From an uncultured Candidatus Melainabacteria bacterium (GTDB taxonomy: Bacteria; Cyanobacteriota; Vampirovibrionia; LMEP-6097): a stretch of 47,958 nucleotides of DNA. Every line of letters starts with the position of its first letter. Within the stretch, counting starts at the first letter, position 1. A program made the position numbers and the translations under genes. This document shows positions 5,253-15,460 of this stretch, piece after piece. Under the pieces are notes generated by a model. That model saw only the letters and a list, made by a program, of their open reading frames with translations. It did no database searches and was not told the origin of the DNA. The stretch is taken from positions 1 to 47,958 of the forward strand of contig CALBDR010000293.1 of assembly GCA_937927525.1 (NCBI GenBank). Reading direction: 5' to 3'.

Positions 5253-6203
5253 GTGCAAGACTTTATATTATTTAAAAACTTACTATTAAAGATACTACCA
5301 CTCTATCTAATTACTTTAATCGGCTATATAAGTGGTAAATTCCTCGAGATTGATAGAAAAAGCATAGCTTTAGTAATTATGTACATTATTGCTCCTGTAG
5401 TTTTTTTTACTGGAATCGCCCATGATAATATCCCTATAAAAAACCTCACTATATCCGCCTTCGTATTTTCAACCTGCGCAATTCTTGCTTTGATTTTTTT
5501 AGGCTTAGGGTCTTTGATCTGGAAAGATTCAACAAAAAACATATTAGCCCTTTGTTCAAGTTCAGGAAATATGGGTTATTTTGGAATCCCAGTTGGTTTA
5601 GCAATATTTGGCACTAAGGCTTTAGGGACTTTAATAATGGCAATGCTTGGAATCATAATATTCCAAAACTCCTTAGCATTTTTTATTGCAGCTAATGGCA
5701 AATATAATTTTATTAAAAGCTTACAGAGAACTCTTTTAGTTCCTAATATTTATGCAGTTGCTCTTGCCTTTTGGCTAAACAGTTTCATCGACTTTAAGAA
5801 TCTTCAAGGCTTTTGGGCAAAGACTTTTGACTTAGCAAAAGATTTCACAGGTGCTTACAGTATACTTGGAATGCTTATAGTAGGCTTTAGCTTATCCCAA
5901 ATAAAAAGCATCACTGTTGATAAAAAAACTTGGCTATTTTTATCACTAAGCCTGATTGCAAAATTTATAGCTTTTCCATTATTAACATATTTATTTATCC
6001 TTGTAGATAAACATAATTTTCACTTATTTAATAATAGAATTTATAATATCTTGTTAATGCTTTCTCTAGCACCGATTCCAGCTAATGCAGTGGTAATAGC
6101 TTCAACCTTAAAACTCAATACTGACATGATTTCAATTGCAGTTTTAGTAAGCAACATCTTCGCACTTTTTCTAATACCTTTACTACTAGTGATAATTAAT
6201 TAA
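5253..6203 (+). CDS. AEC (auxin efflux carrier) family membrane transporter
   Basis: 316-aa polytopic membrane protein with about 10 hydrophobic spans. Its two-halves architecture resembles PF03547-type permeases. The assignment is by pattern only. Confidence 0.7.
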   Translation: MQDFILFKNLLLKILPLYLITLIGYISGKFLEIDRKSIALVIMYIIAPVVFFTGIAHDNIPIKNLTISAFVFSTCAILALIFLGLGSLIWKDSTKNILALCSSSGNMGYFGIPVGLAIFGTKALGTLIMAMLGIIIFQNSLAFFIAANGKYNFIKSLQRTLLVPNIYAVALAFWLNSFIDFKNLQGFWAKTFDLAKDFTGAYSILGMLIVGFSLSQIKSITVDKKTWLFLSLSLIAKFIAFPLLTYLFILVDKHNFHLFNNRIYNILLMLSLAPIPANAVVIASTLKLNTDMISIAVLVSNIFALFLIPLLLVIIN

Positions 6204-7102
6204 GGCAGTATATTTAATGCAACACTATTAATGGAGTTTGCTTGAGTTAACATTGAGCCAGCAGCATTTTGTCTAATTTGTTCTCTTGCAATTTTAGCAG
6301 TAGCTGAAGCGAGATCAGAATCATAAACACTTGACCTTAAAATTTTTGCACCTTGTGCCAAAACACTTTGAAATTGCTCTTGCGCTTGAAGTACATTCAT
6401 ATCAGAAGATGTTTCAGTTAGCATTCTTTCGACATTATTTAACATAACATCAAGATCTGCTAGAGTTCCACTTTTCCCAAATGTTAAACCATCTTCAGCA
6501 GCAACTGAATTAGAACCAATATTAAAAGCATTTAACGCAGTCAAAACTCCTTCACCAAGAGAACCATTGGCAGTACTTGAAATAGAAATTTCAACACCTC
6601 TTCCAGCTGTTCCGTTAGTCTCTAAATCTAAGCTCAGGGTATCTGAATCTTCAACACCAAAAAGTATATTAATATCTCGATTCCCACTAAATAAATCAAT
6701 ATCGTTAAAACTAGTATTCTCTGCTATCTCATTAATCACTTCAATACTTCTCACGACATCTCTTTGCATTGCGGCAAGCTCATCTTCAGCATAAGTTGAA
6801 TTTCCAGCCCTAATTGCGATTTCTTTAATATTGTTGAGTTCTTCTTTAACGGCATTAAGGCCTGAGAAGACAGTATCAACGAGAGACATACCTTGGGCAA
6901 TATTTCTTTGTGAATTATCAGTACTTCTAACTACTGTATCAATACCAGCAGCAATCGATAAACCTGCAGCATCATCACCAGGTTTATTAATTCTTAGCCC
7001 AGTACTAACTTCTTTAGTAGCTTTGCTTATATTCATACTCGTTTGATTGAAAGTACGAAGAGCTAAAGAACTAGTCATATTTGCATTTATAGAAATTGTC
7101 AT
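6200..7102 (-). CDS. flagellin (short, about 300 aa)
   Basis: N-terminal D0/D1 (GLRINKPGDDAAGLSIAAG) and C-terminal (REQIRQNAAGSMLTQANSINSVALNIL) flagellin signatures. Preceded by an AAGAGGA RBS and a sigma28 promoter. Confidence 0.9.
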   Translation of the reverse strand: MTISINANMTSSLALRTFNQTSMNISKATKEVSTGLRINKPGDDAAGLSIAAGIDTVVRSTDNSQRNIAQGMSLVDTVFSGLNAVKEELNNIKEIAIRAGNSTYAEDELAAMQRDVVRSIEVINEIAENTSFNDIDLFSGNRDINILFGVEDSDTLSLDLETNGTAGRGVEISISSTANGSLGEGVLTALNAFNIGSNSVAAEDGLTFGKSGTLADLDVMLNNVERMLTETSSDMNVLQAQEQFQSVLAQGAKILRSSVYDSDLASATAKIAREQIRQNAAGSMLTQANSINSVALNILP

Positions 7103-7204: not shown

Positions 7205-8122
7205 CTACGGTATTAGGTTGAGAGCGATTCCGCCTTGAGAGTTAGCTTGACTTAATAAAGAAGCTGCTGAGTTTTGTACTAACTGAGACTTAATTAAATT
7301 TGAACTTTCTGCAGCAAAATCAGTATTGTAAATATTTGAATGAACTTTACTCATTCCGATAGCAAAACCTTCTTGATAATCCATACGGGAATTCAAAGCA
7401 TTTTCATAGCCACCAATCTCAGATCTCATTCTACTTACATTATCGATCATTTGATCAATATCAGCTAGTTCTATATTATCTGTACCATTTGTCGCACCAT
7501 CATATGCATTAACTGTTGTTGAACCAACATTAAATTGATCGAGTGTCATTGTTGCAGTAATTCCCTCAGTAATAGAACCTTGGTTTGAATGTGTACTACC
7601 TACACTTATTAGCACTCCAGTATTAGCAGCAAGATTAGCCTGTAAATCAAAAGTTAGTGTATCTCCATCTTCGACACCGACCTGTAAAGTCCTATTAGAA
7701 ACCCCATCTAATAAATTCATACCGCTGAAAGAAGTATTTTGAGCAATATTATCTATAATCCCAACCCTTTCAACGATTTCTCTTTGCATTGATGCCAGTT
7801 CATCTTCAGAATAAACTCCATTTTTAGCTTGCATTGAAATCTCTCGAATCCTTTGCAATTCATCTGTTACTGAACCAAGTGCTGCATCCATAGTCTGCAA
7901 CATAGACACGCCATCACCTATGTTCTTCTTGGCATTAGTAGTACTTCTTAGAAGTGTCTCAAAACCTTTTGAGATACTAAGCCCAGCAGCATCATCTGCA
8001 CCTTTATTGATCCTGATCCCTGTTGCCAACTTATTTGTTGAATCCGCAACATTTTTAGTTGAATTGTAAAATGTTCTCTGAGAAAACATTGCACTAGTAT
8101 TTGTATGTAAAGAAATTGACAT
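7205..8122 (-). CDS. flagellin (short, about 305 aa)
   Basis: Has GIRINKGADDAAGLSISKG and C-terminal LIKSQLVQNSAASLLSQANSQGGIALNLI. The ORF track begins at GTG 8131. The ATG at 8122 (MSISLHTN...) aligns with the paralog start and follows a GGGGGTGGA RBS, so it is preferred. Confidence 0.9.
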   Translation of the reverse strand: MSISLHTNTSAMFSQRTFYNSTKNVADSTNKLATGIRINKGADDAAGLSISKGFETLLRSTTNAKKNIGDGVSMLQTMDAALGSVTDELQRIREISMQAKNGVYSEDELASMQREIVERVGIIDNIAQNTSFSGMNLLDGVSNRTLQVGVEDGDTLTFDLQANLAANTGVLISVGSTHSNQGSITEGITATMTLDQFNVGSTTVNAYDGATNGTDNIELADIDQMIDNVSRMRSEIGGYENALNSRMDYQEGFAIGMSKVHSNIYNTDFAAESSNLIKSQLVQNSAASLLSQANSQGGIALNLIP

Positions 8123-8154
8123 TATTTCCACCCCCTATTCATTTGTACTAATAT

Positions 8155-8343: not shown

Positions 8344-9720
8344 TCAATAAATAGACTGGGACAACCATGCAACAATGGTTCCCTTTAACTCTTTTTTATC
8401 TAAGTTTTTAGATTTTGCTAGATATCGGTCACTCTCTGTTGCCATTTGCTGAACTGGTCGCAGATCATAAACATAGCGCTCATTGTCCCGAGAACAATTA
8501 TGGGTATATTGTCCCAGATAAAAATTACAGGTTTTTACTGCTAAATTATCATCACTAGATAAGCCAAAACCTCGACACAATAATGGTCTTGCCTCATATA
8601 TAGAGCAGCGCTTATCTATTAAAAAAGGACAAGAATACTTAAATCCATGAGGGTTCTCTACACCTTTTTTTCGATTCTCAATAAAAGACTTATCTATAAT
8701 TTTTAGCTCATCACCAAACTTAGCTTTATGTTCATTTTGAATTTGTCTAGCACGCTCACGAACTTCTTCTAATGGATAATCATTTTTTTCAGCCCAATCT
8801 TTTAGATACAAATATTCAGTCAGACTCATATGCGGTGAAGTGTAATTACAGCAATCAGAGCAATTAAAGTAGGCACAAGTATCTTCATGAAGACCAGTTG
8901 TCTCAAGAACCTCTTTCTGAGTACTTACAACCTCATCTAAAACTTGCCCCCAGTTACTTAAAGTCTCTGCGGCAGGAAAATAACTAGGGTTCGCTTTAGG
9001 GCGCATTTCTGGAGATAAGTCGATGCTAATATCTGCCGGCATAATCTTACGATATCTCATCATATATTCTTCAGATTTTTCCTTATCCCCAGTAACTCGA
9101 TAATAAAAAGCAAGCAACCTTACTCGTTCGGCTTCCTGCCTCTGTTCAATATTTTCTACTCCGTTGCAAAAATCAATAAATTTAAAATTCAATAACTCAT
9201 CAGCAAGCTGCTGATATTTTTCTTTAATTCTAAATTCTAAAATATACTGAGAGTAGTAAAAAGTAATATCAGGCAAAATATTTTTTAATGAATAAAACTC
9301 AAAATTATCTAGTGTTTTTTGAGTTTGTTCAGAAAAAGTAATATTTACCTTTAAGACATGAAAGAATTCCACTAAGATTTTAGCTAAACTCTGAGAGAGA
9401 CGCTTTCTAGTATGTGCATCGACAAAATTAGGAATAAAATGATTTGCCTGCAAAACCTTACCTTGAAGTATATACACATAAGTCCATAGAATTTTTATTT
9501 CTTTCTCAGCTAAATTTTCTGGTCTTTCTAATATTTGATTTTCAAACTCTAAAAATTCCTCAAAAATCAAAAGTTTCATAAATTTTCGAAAGTTTTTAGA
9601 ATACCTATGTCTATACTTTTTCTCTTCCTCAAGACACACTGAATAATAGTCATTGAACTCATCTCGATTGAAATCAGCACAGCCAGAATTTTCAATTTTT
9701 AAGCAATCTAATGAATCCAT
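8344..9720 (-). CDS. CxxCxxCC / YkgJ-family (putative Zn- or Fe-S-binding) domain protein with helical N-terminal half; possible flagellin-modifying enzyme
   Basis: The C-terminal half carries C-x4-C-x2-CC (CAYFNCSDCC) and later CPFLIDKRCSIYEARPLLCRGFG. This is the pattern I recall for Pfam PF03692, the family that contains Salmonella flagellin lysine-N-methylase FliB. The gene lies immediately upstream of the flagellin genes on the same strand. Confidence 0.6.
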   Translation of the reverse strand: MDSLDCLKIENSGCADFNRDEFNDYYSVCLEEEKKYRHRYSKNFRKFMKLLIFEEFLEFENQILERPENLAEKEIKILWTYVYILQGKVLQANHFIPNFVDAHTRKRLSQSLAKILVEFFHVLKVNITFSEQTQKTLDNFEFYSLKNILPDITFYYSQYILEFRIKEKYQQLADELLNFKFIDFCNGVENIEQRQEAERVRLLAFYYRVTGDKEKSEEYMMRYRKIMPADISIDLSPEMRPKANPSYFPAAETLSNWGQVLDEVVSTQKEVLETTGLHEDTCAYFNCSDCCNYTSPHMSLTEYLYLKDWAEKNDYPLEEVRERARQIQNEHKAKFGDELKIIDKSFIENRKKGVENPHGFKYSCPFLIDKRCSIYEARPLLCRGFGLSSDDNLAVKTCNFYLGQYTHNCSRDNERYVYDLRPVQQMATESDRYLAKSKNLDKKELKGTIVAWLSQSIY

Positions 9721-9780
9721 TTAACTTATTATTCCTCAAAATCTTGGCCTTTGGGCCTTTTACCTGTAAGATAGAGTTGT

Positions 9781-10767
9781 ATGCCTAGCTACTGTACAGT
9801 TTGTGGTGTAAAATTAACCGCTAAAAATAGAATTTCATATAGACCTAGTTCATGTAGAGACTGTGAATTAGAACGTAAAAGATTATATTCACTTAAAAGA
9901 AAACTCCAAAAAGAACAGGAAAATGCAGCTAAGGGTGCTAAAACTACTAAAACTAAAGCTAAAGAAGAGAAAAAGTCTACTAAAACTAAGGTAGTTAAAG
10001 GTACCAGTGCTACCAAAGCAAAAATAGTAACTAAAGTACCGACAAAAGCCAAGGCTGCAGCCAAGTCCACAGCTACGACTCGAGCAAAACGTTCTACAAG
10101 TAAAGCTTCAACAACAAAAACGACAGCAGCTAAAACTAAATCAGCTGCTGTCAAGAAGGAAGTTAAAGTTAAAGTTAAAGCTAAAACAAAGACAACGAAC
10201 AAAGAAATTAAAGCTAAAACAACTACTAAAGCTAAAGCCACTGCTGTTAAAGCCAAGGCAGCAGAAGAAAAAGAAACTAAAGCTAAAACAACAAAAGCAA
10301 AAGCAAAAGAACCAACTAAAATAACAGCTACTAAAAAAGAAGAAACTAAAGTTAAGGAAAGTAAAGCATCTGCAAAATATAAAGCTGTAGAAAAAACAGA
10401 GAAAAAAGAAGCTAATCCATTTGTTGCTTTACCTTCTTACATAAAAGATTCTGCAAAAATTAAAGTCAAGAAAAGAAGACTATCTAAAGATAAAAAATCA
10501 AGTTCAACTTCAGCAAAAGAACTTCCATCATTATCTTCAGAAGGTGATGCTAGCCACATTTTTTCTTTAGGCAAAGAATTATCAGAAGATGATTTATTAA
10601 GAGCCCCATCTGAAACACCATGGGATAGCTCTAGCTTTAAAATCGTAAGTGGAAGTACCGTTGAACATGGGGTAGAAGACCAGGAAGAAAGTAGAGGTCC
10701 AAGCCCTGAAGAAATTAAAAATATTATTGAAAAAATAAGACTAGAGCACAAAACAAGAAGGAGTTAG
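9781..10767 (+). CDS. zinc-ribbon protein with long Lys/Ala/Thr-rich (histone H1-like) low-complexity region and acidic/Ser-rich C-terminus
   Basis: N-terminus has CTVCG...x17...CRDCE (a CxxC...CxxC ribbon). Residues about 50-215 are almost entirely K/A/T/E repeats (KAKTTKAKA etc.). The stop lies 1 nt before the secretin ATG, with GGAG inside the 3' end acting as its RBS. Confidence 0.6.
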   Translation: MPSYCTVCGVKLTAKNRISYRPSSCRDCELERKRLYSLKRKLQKEQENAAKGAKTTKTKAKEEKKSTKTKVVKGTSATKAKIVTKVPTKAKAAAKSTATTRAKRSTSKASTTKTTAAKTKSAAVKKEVKVKVKAKTKTTNKEIKAKTTTKAKATAVKAKAAEEKETKAKTTKAKAKEPTKITATKKEETKVKESKASAKYKAVEKTEKKEANPFVALPSYIKDSAKIKVKKRRLSKDKKSSSTSAKELPSLSSEGDASHIFSLGKELSEDDLLRAPSETPWDSSSFKIVSGSTVEHGVEDQEESRGPSPEEIKNIIEKIRLEHKTRRS

Positions 10768-10768
10768 C

Positions 10769-12394
10769 ATGAGCTTAAAGCGTTTAGCATTGATAGGAAC
10801 ACTAATATTAAGTCCATTTATTGCGCTTACGTGTTTCAAAACACCTAAAGTCCAAGCTGCTAAACAAAGTTCAAAAACTGAAAGTCAGACTCCAGGCAAT
10901 CTTATAAATTTCTCAGCAAGAAATGTTCCTGTAAGAGATGCCTTTGCTACCCTAGCTAGAATCTCGGGGAAAAGTATCACTGTGAGTGGTGATATTCAAG
11001 ACAGACAGACAATTTCAGTAGTAGAAATTAATGATCTAAGTTTCAATGATGCATTTATGAACTTGGTAAGAGCTGCTGGAGTTGATTTTGTTGCAAGGGG
11101 AGATAATAATTTTACTATTCTTAGAGCTAATAGTAGGTCAGATATCAAGCTTTTTTCGAGTTTGGAATCTAGTATTATTGATACTGAGTTACCTTTAGAA
11201 GATAGAAGGACCGACTTAGTATACGACAACCAAGATATATCAAGCATTGTAAAAGACTTGGCTAATATGTATGGGGTCGATATAATACTCACAGCTCAAC
11301 CTACAGAAAGAGTCACTGTGAAACTAAAAGATGTTAACATTGATGAAGCCTTAACTTTGGTTTTAGCTGGTAGTCAATTCAAGCATACTAAAAGTGGTGA
11401 AGCATATGTTCTTTATAACAGCGCTAATAAAAATTTCAGCTTATATAATGAAACAGCATTTATACCACTAAACTATATTGATGCTAAAGAAATACTCAAG
11501 TTCTTACCTGAAGATATAAAAAAATTAGCGAAATCTAGTGAAAAACAAAATGCTCTTATAGCTGATGGCTCAGCTGAAGATATTGAAAAATTGCGTAATT
11601 TTGTAAAGGCTGTCGATCAGCCAATACCTCAAGTAGAGCTTGATGTAAAGCTTGTAGAAATGTCTGAAAGCTTGAACCGTGCTTTAACTCCATATGCTGA
11701 CACATTTAACTTAGGTAGGGTAGGAACCACAATATCCAATGAAGCTACTGGTGCTGATACCACTGATTTACTTGATGGAGCTGGTTTTGATCTAAATTTT
11801 GATGATGATAACTTCTTTATTTTTAATACAAGACCTTCTTATAGCCAAAACTCAGCAAATGCACAAATTAAAGTTAGCCAAAAGCTATTAGTAACTAGTG
11901 GTAAAAGTGCACAAATCAACTTTGACCAAGATATTAACGTCGTTCTAAATGCAGCAAACCCTGGCGGTGGTGGACAAGCCGTTGGAGTTGTTCAAACCCA
12001 ACAAATACAAAAAGTAACTGCTGGTAATTCGTTGAGTATCACTCCTATTGTAGGTCACGGGGGTATTATTACTGTTGAAGTCGAAGTCGAAGTATCAGCA
12101 AACGGAGATATAAACCCTAACACAGGTGTCCCTGTAAGTACGACTAGAAGAAGAATTACTTCAGAAGTCCAAATTCCAAATCATAAAACCATTGTAATTG
12201 GTGGTATCTTTGATGACCAAAAAACAAGATCTACATCAAATGAAATTCCGATTTTAAGTAGAATACCAATAATTGGTAACCTATTCGGTAACACTTCTAG
12301 AGCTAAAGCTCAAACTGAGCTAATGATCTTAATTACCCCTCATGTTAAAGATGCTGACAGTAATATTCTTCAGAAATTTTACTCAACAACATAA
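10769..12394 (+). CDS. secretin (PilQ/GspD superfamily outer-membrane channel)
   Basis: Signal peptide, then two N0/STN-like repeats (NVPVRDAFATLARISGKSITVSGD...; DISSIVKDLANMYGVDIILT...), an N1-like domain, and the C-terminal secretin signature (VIGGIFDD...EIPILSRIPIIGNLFG......ELMILITPHV). Confidence 0.87.
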   Translation: MSLKRLALIGTLILSPFIALTCFKTPKVQAAKQSSKTESQTPGNLINFSARNVPVRDAFATLARISGKSITVSGDIQDRQTISVVEINDLSFNDAFMNLVRAAGVDFVARGDNNFTILRANSRSDIKLFSSLESSIIDTELPLEDRRTDLVYDNQDISSIVKDLANMYGVDIILTAQPTERVTVKLKDVNIDEALTLVLAGSQFKHTKSGEAYVLYNSANKNFSLYNETAFIPLNYIDAKEILKFLPEDIKKLAKSSEKQNALIADGSAEDIEKLRNFVKAVDQPIPQVELDVKLVEMSESLNRALTPYADTFNLGRVGTTISNEATGADTTDLLDGAGFDLNFDDDNFFIFNTRPSYSQNSANAQIKVSQKLLVTSGKSAQINFDQDINVVLNAANPGGGGQAVGVVQTQQIQKVTAGNSLSITPIVGHGGIITVEVEVEVSANGDINPNTGVPVSTTRRRITSEVQIPNHKTIVIGGIFDDQKTRSTSNEIPILSRIPIIGNLFGNTSRAKAQTELMILITPHVKDADSNILQKFYSTT

Positions 12395-12399
12395 ACACT

Positions 12400-12879
12400 A
12401 TGAATAAAAGAATATTCTTATTTTTACTAATATCATTGAGCATAAATTTTGCTCCTGCAAATGCATTCTGGGGCTTTTACGATTCAAGGCAAGACGAGCC
12501 TGAAATAGAATTAGTTCTTAGACAAGTTCCTAAAACCCCATTGAGGATCATAAAACATAAAATGAAAGACTCAGGGGTCAATCAGCTACATGTTAAAGAA
12601 GTGGCTCAAACCTTTATTTTCAAAGTAAAAAATGTCAGTAAGCAAAATATAATCTCCTACAAAATAGGAATGAAAGAATATCATCCTTTTCAAGAAGTTA
12701 AAAGCAAAGAATTTTTTATTAGTTCTGTAAAAAAATTAAAACCAAAACAAACTAATAAAAACTATGATCAGAGAATAATCAACGAAAATATTGATACTCT
12801 TTACATAGCCACCGTGGATGAAGTACTTTTTGAAGATGGTACAGTCTGGAATGCTAAGCAAGGTATAATAAAACCTTAA
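12400..12879 (+). CDS. hypothetical secreted protein (159 aa)
   Basis: Sec-type signal peptide (MNKRIFLFLLISLSINFAPANA|F) with no lipobox Cys. It starts 5 nt after the secretin stop. No recognisable family. Confidence 0.5.
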   Translation: MNKRIFLFLLISLSINFAPANAFWGFYDSRQDEPEIELVLRQVPKTPLRIIKHKMKDSGVNQLHVKEVAQTFIFKVKNVSKQNIISYKIGMKEYHPFQEVKSKEFFISSVKKLKPKQTNKNYDQRIINENIDTLYIATVDEVLFEDGTVWNAKQGIIKP

Positions 12880-12882
12880 ATC

Positions 12883-13056
12883 ATGTCAGAAGAAATACTA
12901 GACGCTGAAGCAAGTACTTTAAATAAAAATAGTGGTCCTATTGATCATTTAAAACATTTATTAAAGATAGGTTGGGCATTAGACTCACCTTTAATTCAAT
13001 CTTTTGTTGAAAAACATAATCTCCACAGGGAATTAAAGCAATTACAAAATGACTAA
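12883..13056 (+). CDS. unannotated small ORF (57 aa), hypothetical
   Basis: My own translation: MSEEILDAEASTLNKNSGPIDHLKHLLKIGWALDSPLIQSFVEKHNLHRELKQLQND. It starts 3 nt after the previous stop, and its stop overlaps the next ATG (ATGACTAA, 8-nt overlap). It falls below the ORF-track length cut-off. Confidence 0.35.
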   Translation: MSEEILDAEASTLNKNSGPIDHLKHLLKIGWALDSPLIQSFVEKHNLHRELKQLQND

Positions 13057-13861
13057 TAATCAAGTACTTAACCAAGAACTTGTTAAATACTTTTATGATT
13101 TTTTATCCGAAAAAAGTCATAAAACAGACTCTGCTATTCATAAAATCATTCTAGATCTTAAAAAGTTTATCGAGAGAATTGAAGATACTCTAATTAGCCC
13201 AGACTCTATTAGAGAGTATATATTCTTGCTAAAAGATGAATATAATCCATCTACATATAAAGTTAAATTAAGCAGTCTAAGACAGTTCTGTAACTGGTTA
13301 GACCTTAAAGACAACCCCTTTTACTATGCCAATGAATTTGAAATAATTGAAGATGAAGAAAAAGAAAACTATTACAATGAAGAAGAGTATCATAACCTCA
13401 AGAAAGAACTTAGCTTCATAGAAAAACTCATAGTTACTTTAATATATGAACTATATCTATCAGTAGATGATTTTTATAACTTAAGCTTAGCTAACTTTAA
13501 CTTTGCAAATCTAAGTTTTAAAATCAGGGAGACTTCTATAAAGTTAAGTAATGATTTAGCAAAAGCTACAAAAGACTTTGTTAGAAGCTTGAGCCAGCAA
13601 GGCTTAGAGTATAAAATTTTTAGCCTAGACCCTATCAGTAATGAAGAAATCAGTCTAGAAAAAATATTTAAAAGAAATAATTTATCTATAAAGAAGTTAA
13701 GAAGATCGAGGATTGTTCATCTACTTAATTCAGGACTTAGCTTAGATGAAGTAAACAGCTTACTTGGCTTAAAGTTAGGTGCAAGCTATGAAAAATTTGA
13801 AACTCAGAAAAAAGATTATGTCTTGCTAAAAGAGTTTAAAAGTTTTCACCCTCGGGGCTAA
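13049..13861 (+). CDS. XerC/XerD-like tyrosine-recombinase-fold protein with degenerate catalytic residues
   Basis: N-terminal SAM-like region (YKVKLSSLRQFCNWL). The C-terminal part aligns by eye with XerD (LRRSRIVHLLNSGLSLDEVNSLLGL vs [25 protein letters not shown]) and ends in FHPRG, like the Xer ending HPRA. Expected Arg-I, His and Tyr positions are substituted. Confidence 0.65.
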   Translation: MTNNQVLNQELVKYFYDFLSEKSHKTDSAIHKIILDLKKFIERIEDTLISPDSIREYIFLLKDEYNPSTYKVKLSSLRQFCNWLDLKDNPFYYANEFEIIEDEEKENYYNEEEYHNLKKELSFIEKLIVTLIYELYLSVDDFYNLSLANFNFANLSFKIRETSIKLSNDLAKATKDFVRSLSQQGLEYKIFSLDPISNEEISLEKIFKRNNLSIKKLRRSRIVHLLNSGLSLDEVNSLLGLKLGASYEKFETQKKDYVLLKEFKSFHPRG

Positions 13862-14121
13862 CTAGCCTCTGGCTCAGCGAGAGAATGTCCTGTAGCCATT
13901 TCTAATGCTCTTTCTAATGTAGCTGCTTTATTCTGAATTTGTCTAATTTCTTCTATCAGAACTTGGTTTTGAATTTTTAGCTTTTTACTTTCATCTTGGT
14001 TAATAAAGTTCTTAGCTGTTAAACCAGGGAGACCGAAGTGCTTAGCAAAAGTTATTAGGACTGAAGCGCTTAAAGCTCCTGCTAAAAAACCAACTAATCC
14101 ACTGCCTAATAATTCTTCCAT
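13858..14121 (-). CDS. hypothetical protein (87 aa; N-terminal hydrophobic segment plus coiled-coil)
   Basis: ORF convergent with, and overlapping by 4 nt, the Xer-like gene. No recognisable family. Confidence 0.4.
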   Translation of the reverse strand: MEELLGSGLVGFLAGALSASVLITFAKHFGLPGLTAKNFINQDESKKLKIQNQVLIEEIRQIQNKAATLERALEMATGHSLAEPEAS

Positions 14122-14287
14122 TTATTGCCCTTTCTCTTTATTTTAACAATTATCCCTGAGCCGTATTAAAATACTGGTACGAAAGTACTTAGTCCCTCAT
14201 AAGTTTAAGATAGGATAAAGAATATTTACGTAAAGTGAAATTGTGATATTATCTTGAAAATTTACTTTTTAGCTAAAATACTAACTA

Positions 14288-15460
14288 GTGAAAGATCTAC
14301 TAATCGAACTAGCAAATATAAACTCATATTCATATAACTTAGAAGGCTTAGAAAAAGTAAAAGACCTGCTTAAAAGCTGGTATCTAGAACTTAATGAAAA
14401 ATTCTCACACTTAAATCTTAAGTTTAGGGAAATTGAACTGAAGCCGCAAAGCTTAGTAAACAAAGCAGGAAAGCTTGAAGAACAAAAGCTTGGAAAAGCT
14501 TTATTAATCACGAAAGAAGTCAACCCAGACCTACCTTCAGTATTATTAATGGGACACATGGATACAGTCTTCCCTCCTACAATAGGTTTTAATGAATGTA
14601 AAGATTTAGGAAATGGCATCATGAATGGACCTGGAGTTTCAGATCTGAAAGGTGGTCTAGTAGTTATGCTTAAAGCTTTAGAAAAATTTGAAGCTAGCCC
14701 AGAAGCAGAGAAACTTAATTGGCAAGTCTTCTTTAATCCAGATGAAGAAATCGGCTCACCTGGTTCAAGTGAAATTTTCTCACAGGTAGCAAAACATAAT
14801 AAATGGGGTTTAATCTATGAACCTAGTCTGCCAGATGGTTCTTTTACTTATAGAAGGAAGGGAGCTGCTAATTATCAGTTAGTAATACGCGGCAAAGCCG
14901 CGCATGTCGGCAGAGCCTTCGGTGAAGGTATAAGTGCAATTTCTATTGCAGCAGAGTTTATTAATGCAGGTAATGTCTTAAATGAAGATCCTAATGTCAT
15001 TATTAACTTTGGGAAAATCGAAGGTGGTGGACCTTTAAACATAGTTCCTGACTTAGCAATATTAGGATTCAACATTAGAATCGAAGAAAACACTGACGAG
15101 GAAAGAGTTTTAAAAACAATTAATGAACTAATAGGGAAACTAAAAAACAAATACCCTGGTGCTGAATTCAATCTTCACGGAAAATTTAACCGTAAACCTA
15201 AAATCCCAAACGAGAAATTAGATTCTTTATATACTATTCTAGAAGAGTGTTGTAGTGAATTAAACCTGAGCTACAAAACGCGAAACACAGGTGGTTGCTG
15301 CGATGGCAACAATATGTGGGAGTATGGACTTCCAAATATCGATACATTAGGTGTAAGAGGAAAAGACATTCATAGTACTGATGAAATCATTTATTTAGAC
15401 TCACTTGAAGAAAGAAGAGAATTATCTTACCTATTATTAAAGCGACTAGCGCTGATATAA
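14288..15460 (+). CDS. M20 family metallopeptidase (carboxypeptidase G2 / ArgE / DapE-like amidohydrolase)
   Basis: Has GHMDTVFP, GPGVSDLKGG, NPDEEIGSPGS and a dimerisation-domain-like middle, all typical of M20 hydrolases. GTG start. It is the first gene of the AST-like cluster. Confidence 0.8.
   Translation: MKDLLIELANINSYSYNLEGLEKVKDLLKSWYLELNEKFSHLNLKFREIELKPQSLVNKAGKLEEQKLGKALLITKEVNPDLPSVLLMGHMDTVFPPTIGFNECKDLGNGIMNGPGVSDLKGGLVVMLKALEKFEASPEAEKLNWQVFFNPDEEIGSPGSSEIFSQVAKHNKWGLIYEPSLPDGSFTYRRKGAANYQLVIRGKAAHVGRAFGEGISAISIAAEFINAGNVLNEDPNVIINFGKIEGGGPLNIVPDLAILGFNIRIEENTDEERVLKTINELIGKLKNKYPGAEFNLHGKFNRKPKIPNEKLDSLYTILEECCSELNLSYKTRNTGGCCDGNNMWEYGLPNIDTLGVRGKDIHSTDEIIYLDSLEERRELSYLLLKRLALI

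Follow-up and report, generated by a model that had tools for sequence, protein, structure and literature searches.

A conserved secretin operon with orphan accessory genes in uncultured Melainabacteria of the Caenarcaniphilales type

Five genes, g1 to g5, lie on the + strand at positions 9781–13861 of a 47,958-nucleotide (48-kb) stretch of contig CALBDR010000293.1, from an uncultured Candidatus Melainabacteria bacterium; the whole stretch is called the window below. The open reading frames (ORFs) were taken from a six-frame ORF list, and domains were searched with Pfam, NCBIfam, PHROGs, PADLOC and PDB profiles. The first gene, g1 (9781–10767), encodes a soluble protein of 328 aa composed of a zinc ribbon, a basic linker and a C-terminal module. 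It is followed by g2 (10769–12394), which encodes a secretin of 541 aa, and by g3 (12400–12879), whose exported product of 159 aa has a beta-rich C-terminal domain. The last two are g4 (12883–13056), for a soluble protein of 57 aa with three main helices predicted, and g5 (13049–13861), for a pseudo-recombinase of 270 aa derived from XerC/D. The gaps are 1 nt at g1/g2, 5 nt at g2/g3 and 3 nt at g3/g4, and g4 and g5 overlap by 8 nt, exactly as had been claimed in the original prediction, a note made from the sequence alone. Its domain calls (PilQ/GspD-type secretin, Xer fold and CxxC..CxxC zinc ribbon) were also borne out by the profiles and alignments. A Shine-Dalgarno (SD) sequence, GGAG, is placed 7 nt ahead of the secretin ATG inside the 3' end of g1, and within g1–g5 the + strand showed no terminator-like site. 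Hydropathy analysis showed N-terminal hydrophobic leaders on g2 and g3, and none on g1, g4 and g5. The five genes form one tightly coupled, conserved operon. Its host chromosome has a low GC content (about 34%), and ribosomal, RNA polymerase, flagellar (flagellins, FliP), AST-pathway and cell-wall genes are aboard the window. The window is chromosomal DNA of a flagellated, non-photosynthetic cyanobacterial relative of the Caenarcaniphilales type (Vampirovibrionia/Melainabacteria). The nearest relatives of the secretin, at 94–70% identity, were found in metagenome-assembled genomes (MAGs) of Candidatus Caenarcanales (Caenarcaniphilales isolates), Vampirovibrionia and 'Melainabacteria'.

Profile HMMs (hidden Markov models) of each gene were mapped onto all fetched loci to follow the gene order. 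The order found is a 458-aa CxxCxxCC gene on the - strand (8344–9720), g1, g2, g3, g4, g5, and a membrane/coiled-coil gene of about 80 aa on the - strand (87 aa in the window, 13858–14121). It is complete with both flanking genes in the window, L001–L005, L007, L011, L012, L014/15, L020, L025 and L041, and it is retained in about 15 shorter loci as far as their contigs extend. In total, the block order recurs in more than 25 independent loci (L001–L005, L007, L010–L015, L020–L034, L041), so that the possibility that the genes are syntenic in no relative is removed. Within these loci the identity falls to 29–33% for g5, about 21% for g3 and about 50% for the secretin. The outer flanks vary, with AST genes in the window and AMP-ligase, superoxide dismutase (SOD), alcohol dehydrogenase (ADH) and toxin-antitoxin genes at other loci. 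Because the outer genes differ between loci and the divergence is large, the linkage of the block must have been kept by selection. The conserved block in the clade containing g4 and g5 has seven genes, not five, when the 458-aa and 87-aa neighbours are added. The deepest relatives gave a different picture. L035, L036 (a 433-kb contig) and L037 carry secretins of 38–42% identity and only g1-g2-g3; g4, g5, the 458-aa gene and the small membrane gene were not found by the profile HMMs within ±10 kb. The deep core is the trio g1-g2-g3. The genes g4 and g5 are confined to one sub-clade, to which the 458-aa gene and the convergent 87-aa gene are likewise restricted, and their distribution reflects a gain in this sub-clade or a loss from the deep group. 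Since the deep group has no g4 or g5 and the g4 family also occurs elsewhere without a secretin, the five genes are not one indivisible module, and the claim of a single five-gene unit could not be upheld.

The surroundings of the trio in the deep group are distinct. It is preceded by a sigma-70-family gene, and smc-scpA-scpB lies farther upstream of this sigma factor-g1-secretin cluster (L036 545–5769; L035 82–4891). A conserved protein of about 910 aa is encoded directly 3' of g3 (L036 12431–15178; L037 6088–8814; L035 11795–14533), and neither the window nor the other block loci contain a homologue of it. By eye, the sequence at its N-terminus, G[MF]TLPFALILTFIFSALV, resembles a pilin/PilX-like leader, without Glu5. 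As a separate observation, L001, whose secretin is 94% identical to g2, has an insertion sequence (IS)-like element between g5 and the small convergent membrane gene (13087–14620). It consists of split ORFs of 92 and 147 aa that appear transposase-like by eye.

The 60-bp region between the divergent 458-aa gene and g1 (9721–9780) seems to be the control region of the operon. The sequence CTTGGCCTTTGGGCC is located inside it at 9743–9757. TTGGCC and TAAGAT are separated by 17 nt, and the ATG of g1 comes 8 nt after the latter. Because this distance is just 8 nt, the g1 mRNA may be leaderless. Hexamers of the form [AT]TGGCC are present ahead of g1 in one to five tandem copies in nearly all lineages (L001–L041), and in the deep group the corresponding arrangement is cTTGGCCa-N17-TATACT. 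GGCC occurs 11 times in the whole window, and two of these are in the 60-bp region. A regulator might bind the hexamer, or it might serve as a dedicated -35 element.

The identity of g2 as a secretin is clear. The Pfam Secretin domain (PF00263) was matched at residues 360–526 with an E-value of 2e-33 and 115.7 bits against a cut-off of 27.5, and STN (36 bits) and Secretin_N (29 bits) were both above their Pfam cut-offs. The protein consists of a signal peptide, an N0-like domain at 44–128, an STN/N0 domain at 146–222, one Secretin_N domain at 230–288 and the secretin domain, after which there is a tail of 15 aa. There is no S-domain and no AMIN domain. A duplication of the N0/STN domain had been proposed, and the two N0-like copies do align in register over 65 columns, although weakly (hhalign P=0.016). 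The first copy, N0a (44–128), is the most conserved part of g2 in the family alignment. It also contains the longest invariant stretch, as would be expected if it had a conserved binding partner. A lipoprotein-secretin reading of g2 was considered for the Cys of its 'LTC' and dropped, since this Cys is not conserved and g2 is thus not a conserved lipoprotein. Separately, the distant secretins of L007, L010, L011, L012 and L014 have an N-terminal extension, within about the first 200 aa, which is not seen in the sub-clade of the window. Its D/E/W repeats (DDDWDDED...) are extremely acidic, and it also has a linker rich in P and T and a conserved segment, LYxxYGxxLxGLNPxxPKDLKEIxKLxEIVG.

The class of the channel is less evident. 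PilQ was the best-scoring cellular model (NCBIfam TIGR02515), and its 132.4 bits are below the cut-off of 284.35. The GspD model (TIGR02517) gave 116 bits against a cut-off of 351. The phage model PHROG 1012 (M13 pIV) matched residues 148–526 with 8.7e-39 and 134 bits, covering profile positions 22–399 of 403, and thus scores g2 as well as PilQ does. The scores of the three models do not discriminate the class of g2. In the PDB profile search, the best single match was GspD 5wq7 (2e-17), and Myxococcus PilQ aligned with g2 from N0 through the end. The GspD match and score would fit a channel that serves type II-like protein secretion instead of a pilus or competence. This is very unlikely, because g2 has one Secretin_N domain rather than the N1–N3 domains of the N0-N1-N2-N3 array of GspD in the type II secretion system (T2SS), lacks the S-domain, has no gsp operon near it, scores higher with the PilQ model and is covered from N0 to its end by Myxococcus PilQ. 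With pIV, g2 shares the minimal architecture. Both proteins have N0, one N domain and the secretin domain without an S-domain, and the profile match is near full-length. In contrast to pIV, g2 is at a fixed site of a cellular chromosome, where pI/Zot, replication and coat genes are all lacking, and no relatives of it were found among viruses.

The g1 protein is well conserved at both ends. In the family alignments, its N-terminal C4 zinc ribbon and the following stretch are invariant (CxxCG...YRPxSCRDCELERKxLYS), and its C-terminal module is conserved as R[AP]PSxTPW...F.[IV]V.G.F...G[PL]S..E[IV]K.IIE[KR]I..EHK. Between them is a strongly basic linker of about 230 aa in the window and 216–345 aa over the family, the sequence of which is not conserved. 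Its net charge is +20 to +79, with a pI near 10, in every lineage. The linker had been described as a histone-H1-like K/A/T tail. This is right for the sub-clade of the window; the composition is K/R/E-rich elsewhere, and only the positive charge is conserved. As the composition shifts while the charge stays, the histone-H1-like character is local and a polycationic spacer is the conserved property. The g1 family has 59 members in 5.8e9 proteins, and the named ones are all 'hypothetical' proteins from Caenarcaniphilales, Melainabacteria or Cyanobacteria MAGs. No match to g1 was obtained in Pfam or NCBIfam, PDB profile searches with both conserved ends gave nothing, and no DNA-binding domain or hydrophobic segment was detected. 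The gene adjoins the secretin gene at every depth sampled, and a fixed ratio of its product to the channel is probable. With its conserved positive charge, g1 might bind nucleic acid or another polyanion.

The g3 protein begins with a leader (ANA/F) and a variable linker; its conserved C-terminal domain is beta-rich and ends in V.F.DG..W. The linker is KE-rich and much longer in the deep relatives. Weak matches to DUF5780 were found in eight of 14 members (Pfam, best E 0.0067), and the PDB profile search yielded 5tta, a 'putative exported protein', at E 0.14 over the last strand only. It had been left open whether g1, g3 and g4 would turn out to be known PilQ accessory proteins. By sequence, none of the three matches the known accessory families (PilP, TsaP, pilotins, GspC/GspS): searches of Pfam and NCBIfam at E<=0.1, and of PHROGs, PADLOC and PDB profiles, gave no family for them other than the weak DUF5780 match of g3.

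After the secretin, g4 is the best conserved protein of the block, with 52–93% identity over the block loci and the core motif DAE..NK...P.[DE]HL.HLL.IG[WY]...S.[LI]I..F. An exhaustive HMMER search of 1.84e9 proteins returned 29 cluster representatives of the family, all of 51–79 aa. AlphaFold predicted three main helices with a pLDDT (predicted local distance difference test) of 75, and the model had no fold match in PDB or BFVD. The distribution of the family is not tied to the secretin. In L018, another Melainabacteria MAG, a g4 relative stands alone between the L21 and peroxiredoxin (AhpC) genes with no secretin. Relatives of about 44% identity were also found in phage-like contigs (L016 7243–7437, L017 7226–7420, L019 10001–10210), where they lie among genes of replication and early phage functions (Dam, DEAD helicase, PDDEXK, D5 primase and AEP primase). 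Two of the cluster representatives lie inside phage-like replication modules (Dam, DEAD helicase, D5 primase, HNH). These sequences suggest a three-helix family common to Melainabacteria and phages, perhaps their own phages. No relatives of g4 or of the secretin were found in IMG/VR or among GenBank phages. A possible role of g4 as an FtsK-gamma-like activator of g5 was raised by a likeness of 'IG[WY]' seen by eye. It found no support: hhalign against gamma sequences gave P=0.086, no PDB profile was matched, and the model is helical, has no wing and found no Foldseek match.

The Xer fold of g5 was recognised by profile (PDB 4a8e, 6e-11; 1a0p, 7e-5). Alignment with genuine Xer proteins showed that g5, like the XerC/XerD resolvases, keeps the N-terminal SAM-like core-binding domain, the catalytic-domain fold and the canonical C-terminal ...FHPR. 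In contrast to them, it has lost the catalytic signature of tyrosine recombinases, R-K-H-R-[H/W]-Y (PMC5357621). Arg I is replaced by Ser138, which is invariant in 16 sequences, and the His of HxxR is replaced by Lys. Arg II persists in the closest sub-clade of the window and has become Lys in the remaining members. Leu, Ile or Val stands in place of the His/Trp of LLGH, and Phe or Leu occupies the position of the nucleophile Tyr. With its catalytic signature lost, g5 is not the working XerC/D of the organism. The substitution of catalytic residues had been anticipated, and a functional xerC/xerD adjacent by chance is not what lies here. The family is small, with 21 relatives of g5 in 5.8e9 proteins. 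All NCBIfam Xer models score g5 far below their cut-offs. The best of them is PRK02436 ('site-specific tyrosine recombinase XerD'), with 1.7e-9 and 38 bits against a cut-off of 178, which we take to be the model of a degenerate streptococcal XerD-like protein. The PRK02436 proteins of Lactobacillales share with g5 the Xer origin, a length of about 250–270 aa and the complete fold; g5 differs in its low score, its phylum and its coupling to a secretin operon and a 57-aa gene. A dif-like site for g5 was sought, and the sole 14-6-14 palindrome (13091–13124) is inside g5 itself, is kept only in the nearest relative and was ascribed to chance. Another observation concerns chain 14 of PDB 9i5v, which is labelled 'Ribosome-associated translation inhibitor RaiA' (401 aa). 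Its first 296 residues align as a complete, catalytically intact XerC/D-type recombinase ending in ...HPR, so the reference sequence was apparently fused or read through.

The pIV-like score of g2 could be taken together with the integrase PHROG matched by g5 (1e-9) and the g4 relatives in phage-like contigs as the remnant of a domesticated filamentous, inovirus-like prophage, in which a pIV-type secretin, a decayed integrase and small phage genes are left. This origin is very improbable. The block has no Zot/pI ATPase, replication or coat-like gene, its chromosomal position is the same throughout the clade, and the searches of IMG/VR and GenBank phages were negative as described above. The XerC/D-specific HPR tail argues against a phage integrase as the ancestor of g5, and the phage-like contigs bearing g4 have replication modules of the tailed-phage type, not of inoviruses. 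A defence-system reading was also dropped, because the PADLOC search of the block gave zero matches.

The degenerate streptococcal XerD-like gene of PRK02436 has scpA/scpB as neighbours. The presence of scpA/scpB near the trio of the deep group may be fortuitous or a trace of a connection with chromosome organisation. It would agree with an operon of convenience, where g2 and g3 belong to the envelope, g1, g4 and g5 have tasks of their own in the cytoplasm, for instance in organising the chromosome or regulating genes, and the genes are merely co-transcribed in an order that persists since the clade is narrow. The layered history of the block and the independent distribution of g4 point the same way, together with the best NCBIfam match of g5 and smc-scpA-scpB just upstream in the deep group. 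On the other hand, g1 is beside the secretin at all depths with the SD sequence of g2 in its 3' end, and the block is intact where all surrounding genes are reshuffled. The operon of convenience is regarded as unlikely.

The genes around the operon were also inspected for partners. The soluble product of the divergent 458-aa gene has a CxxCxxCC domain (PF03692, Pfam 1e-5). The gene adjoins g1 in almost every locus of the g4/g5 clade and is not beside g1 in L010 and L035–L037. Two flagellin genes are located beyond it on the - strand (7205–8131 and 6200–7102), an arrangement present only in the window and L001. The CxxCxxCC domain occurs in the flagellin lysine methylase FliB. A FliB-like methylase reading of the 458-aa protein, suggested by the lysine-rich g1 and the flagellins nearby, was rejected because there was no NCBIfam match and the flagellins are adjacent only in these two loci. 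On the other side, the 87-aa protein has one N-terminal membrane helix followed by a coiled coil. The stop of its convergent gene overlaps that of g5 by 4 nt, and the gene is kept beside g5 in most loci of the clade. A canonical type IV prepilin or pseudopilin is encoded on the - strand at 2187–2684, 7.1 kb upstream of g1. It matches Pfam N_methyl (2e-7), and its leader, RPESG/LTLVELMVVVIIIGILATIAIPNL (RPESG/LTLVELMVVVIIIGIL...), has the G/LTLVE motif. Its linkage to the operon is loose, and a motif scan of all loci found an ortholog 8.5 kb upstream in L002. It had been stated that none of the usual secretin partners is within 8 kb. This holds for PilMNOP, PilB/T/C, Gsp and Zot, which are absent within ±10 kb, and has to be amended for the prepilin.

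With moderate confidence, we favour the reading that the outer-membrane channel formed by g2 belongs to a type IV filament machine, that its accessory proteins are lineage-specific, and that no wholly new machine is involved. The prepilin nearby and the pilin-like 910-aa protein in the deep operon would connect the channel with type IV filament biology of the ordinary kind. Like the PilQ of the pilMNOPQ system, g2 has the secretin domain and the N0(STN)-N1-secretin layout, a prepilin gene is in the window region, and the leader-linker-beta-domain topology of g3 is what would be expected of a PilP-like connector. Under this reading, the trio would be transcribed from one conserved putative promoter. 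The g2 protein may be a PilQ/pIV-type channel of a pilus and/or DNA-uptake machine, whose ATPases and platform would be encoded elsewhere; in Gastranaerophilales, another melainabacterial order, pilA/B/C/T/D have been reported (PMC5877343). The g3 protein could be a periplasmic partner docking on the conserved, duplicated N0 domains. In classical systems, PilP or the GspC-HR domain is the docking partner of N0. The g1 protein would be cytoplasmic, and its role would need the zinc ribbon, the basic spacer and the conserved C-terminal helix. Finally, g5 would not cut DNA and probably still clamps it; it is most likely a DNA-binding regulatory or architectural factor and not a part of the channel.

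Several results weigh against this reading. The PilQ score of g2 is far below its cut-off, is equalled by that of the phage pIV model and comes from a protein with a second N0-like domain and without the AMIN domains of PilQ. PilMNOP, PilB/C/T, Gsp and Zot were found neither in the 48-kb window nor within ±10 kb of the loci with precomputed Pfam calls (L007, L010–L015). In about 35 loci no pilM/N/O/P is adjacent to the secretin gene, whose neighbours are instead the zinc-ribbon polycation and orphans. With no pilM/N/O/P, pilB/C/T or gsp gene seen near any of the loci, the evidence for a connection with type IV filaments is circumstantial. The g3 protein has no detectable similarity to PilP, GspC, TsaP or pilotins. 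Its AlphaFold model, built from a five-sequence alignment, has a pLDDT of 50, which makes a Foldseek search on it meaningless. The pilin-like N-terminus of the 910-aa protein had no Pfam support even at E<=10. Moreover, the coupling of g4 and g5 to the secretin has been kept while g5 identity fell to 29–38%, which argues against their being mere passengers.

A rival reading is the hypothesis of the original prediction, that all five products make up one undescribed secretin-based DNA machine for uptake, export or tethering, with g1 and g5 binding nucleic acid. It is consistent with the translational coupling, with the order kept across lineages with scrambled flanks, with the charge of the g1 linker that stays at +20 to +79 despite the change of sequence, with the core-binding domain and C-terminal tail retained in g5, and with the lack of classical partner genes near a block in which g1, g3 and g4 match no known family. 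However, the deepest relatives have g1-g2-g3 without g4 and g5, and g4 relatives exist without a secretin, also in phage-like contigs. In addition, g1, g4 and g5 are soluble cytoplasmic proteins. The only membrane protein is the 87-aa single-pass coiled coil on the other strand, so the block has no evident inner-membrane conduit, and g1 has no detected DNA-binding domain. The five-gene DNA machine is thus considered unlikely. DNA handling is a guess from two features of the sequences, the conserved charge of g1 and the Xer fold of g5.

A further reading centres on the trio. The trio would be a self-contained, undescribed secretin system of Vampirovibrionia that operates with no classical type IV filament or T2SS machine. 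In Caenarcaniphilales it would have been extended by g4, g5 and the flanking 458-aa CxxCxxCC and 87-aa membrane/coiled-coil proteins. Polycationic, DNA-clamping proteins of the cytoplasm would be coupled to the outer-membrane channel, and nucleic acid would be taken up, exported or anchored. This reading is considered quite unlikely as well. A type IV filament channel with lineage-specific accessory proteins is still preferred. The gene structure, conservation, domains, loss of catalytic residues and layered history were read from the loci themselves, and beyond 'secretin' we infer every function proposed here.

Secretins are usually understood via their operon partners, which reveal the machine they serve. 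In the present operon, the secretin channel itself is ordinary. The new part is the accessory genes, and three of the five proteins are orphans. The literature on Melainabacteria/Vampirovibrionia secretins, PilQ and pili yielded no account of this arrangement, so the view that its composition is undescribed stands. The finding is of interest for specialists of secretins and type IV pili and for the envelope biology of non-photosynthetic cyanobacteria, although a machine of a new kind is not yet demonstrated by it. Nevertheless, an order-level lineage of uncultured cyanobacterial relatives keeps a secretin tied to proteins of no described family. Being compact and easy to synthesise, the block offers a target in a group whose cell envelope is almost unexplored experimentally. 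Docking of the accessory proteins on the channel, if it occurs, would mean that the PilP/pilotin problem has been solved in a new manner. A functional tie between the cytoplasmic proteins and the channel, if there is one, would represent a new link between DNA-binding proteins and an envelope conduit.

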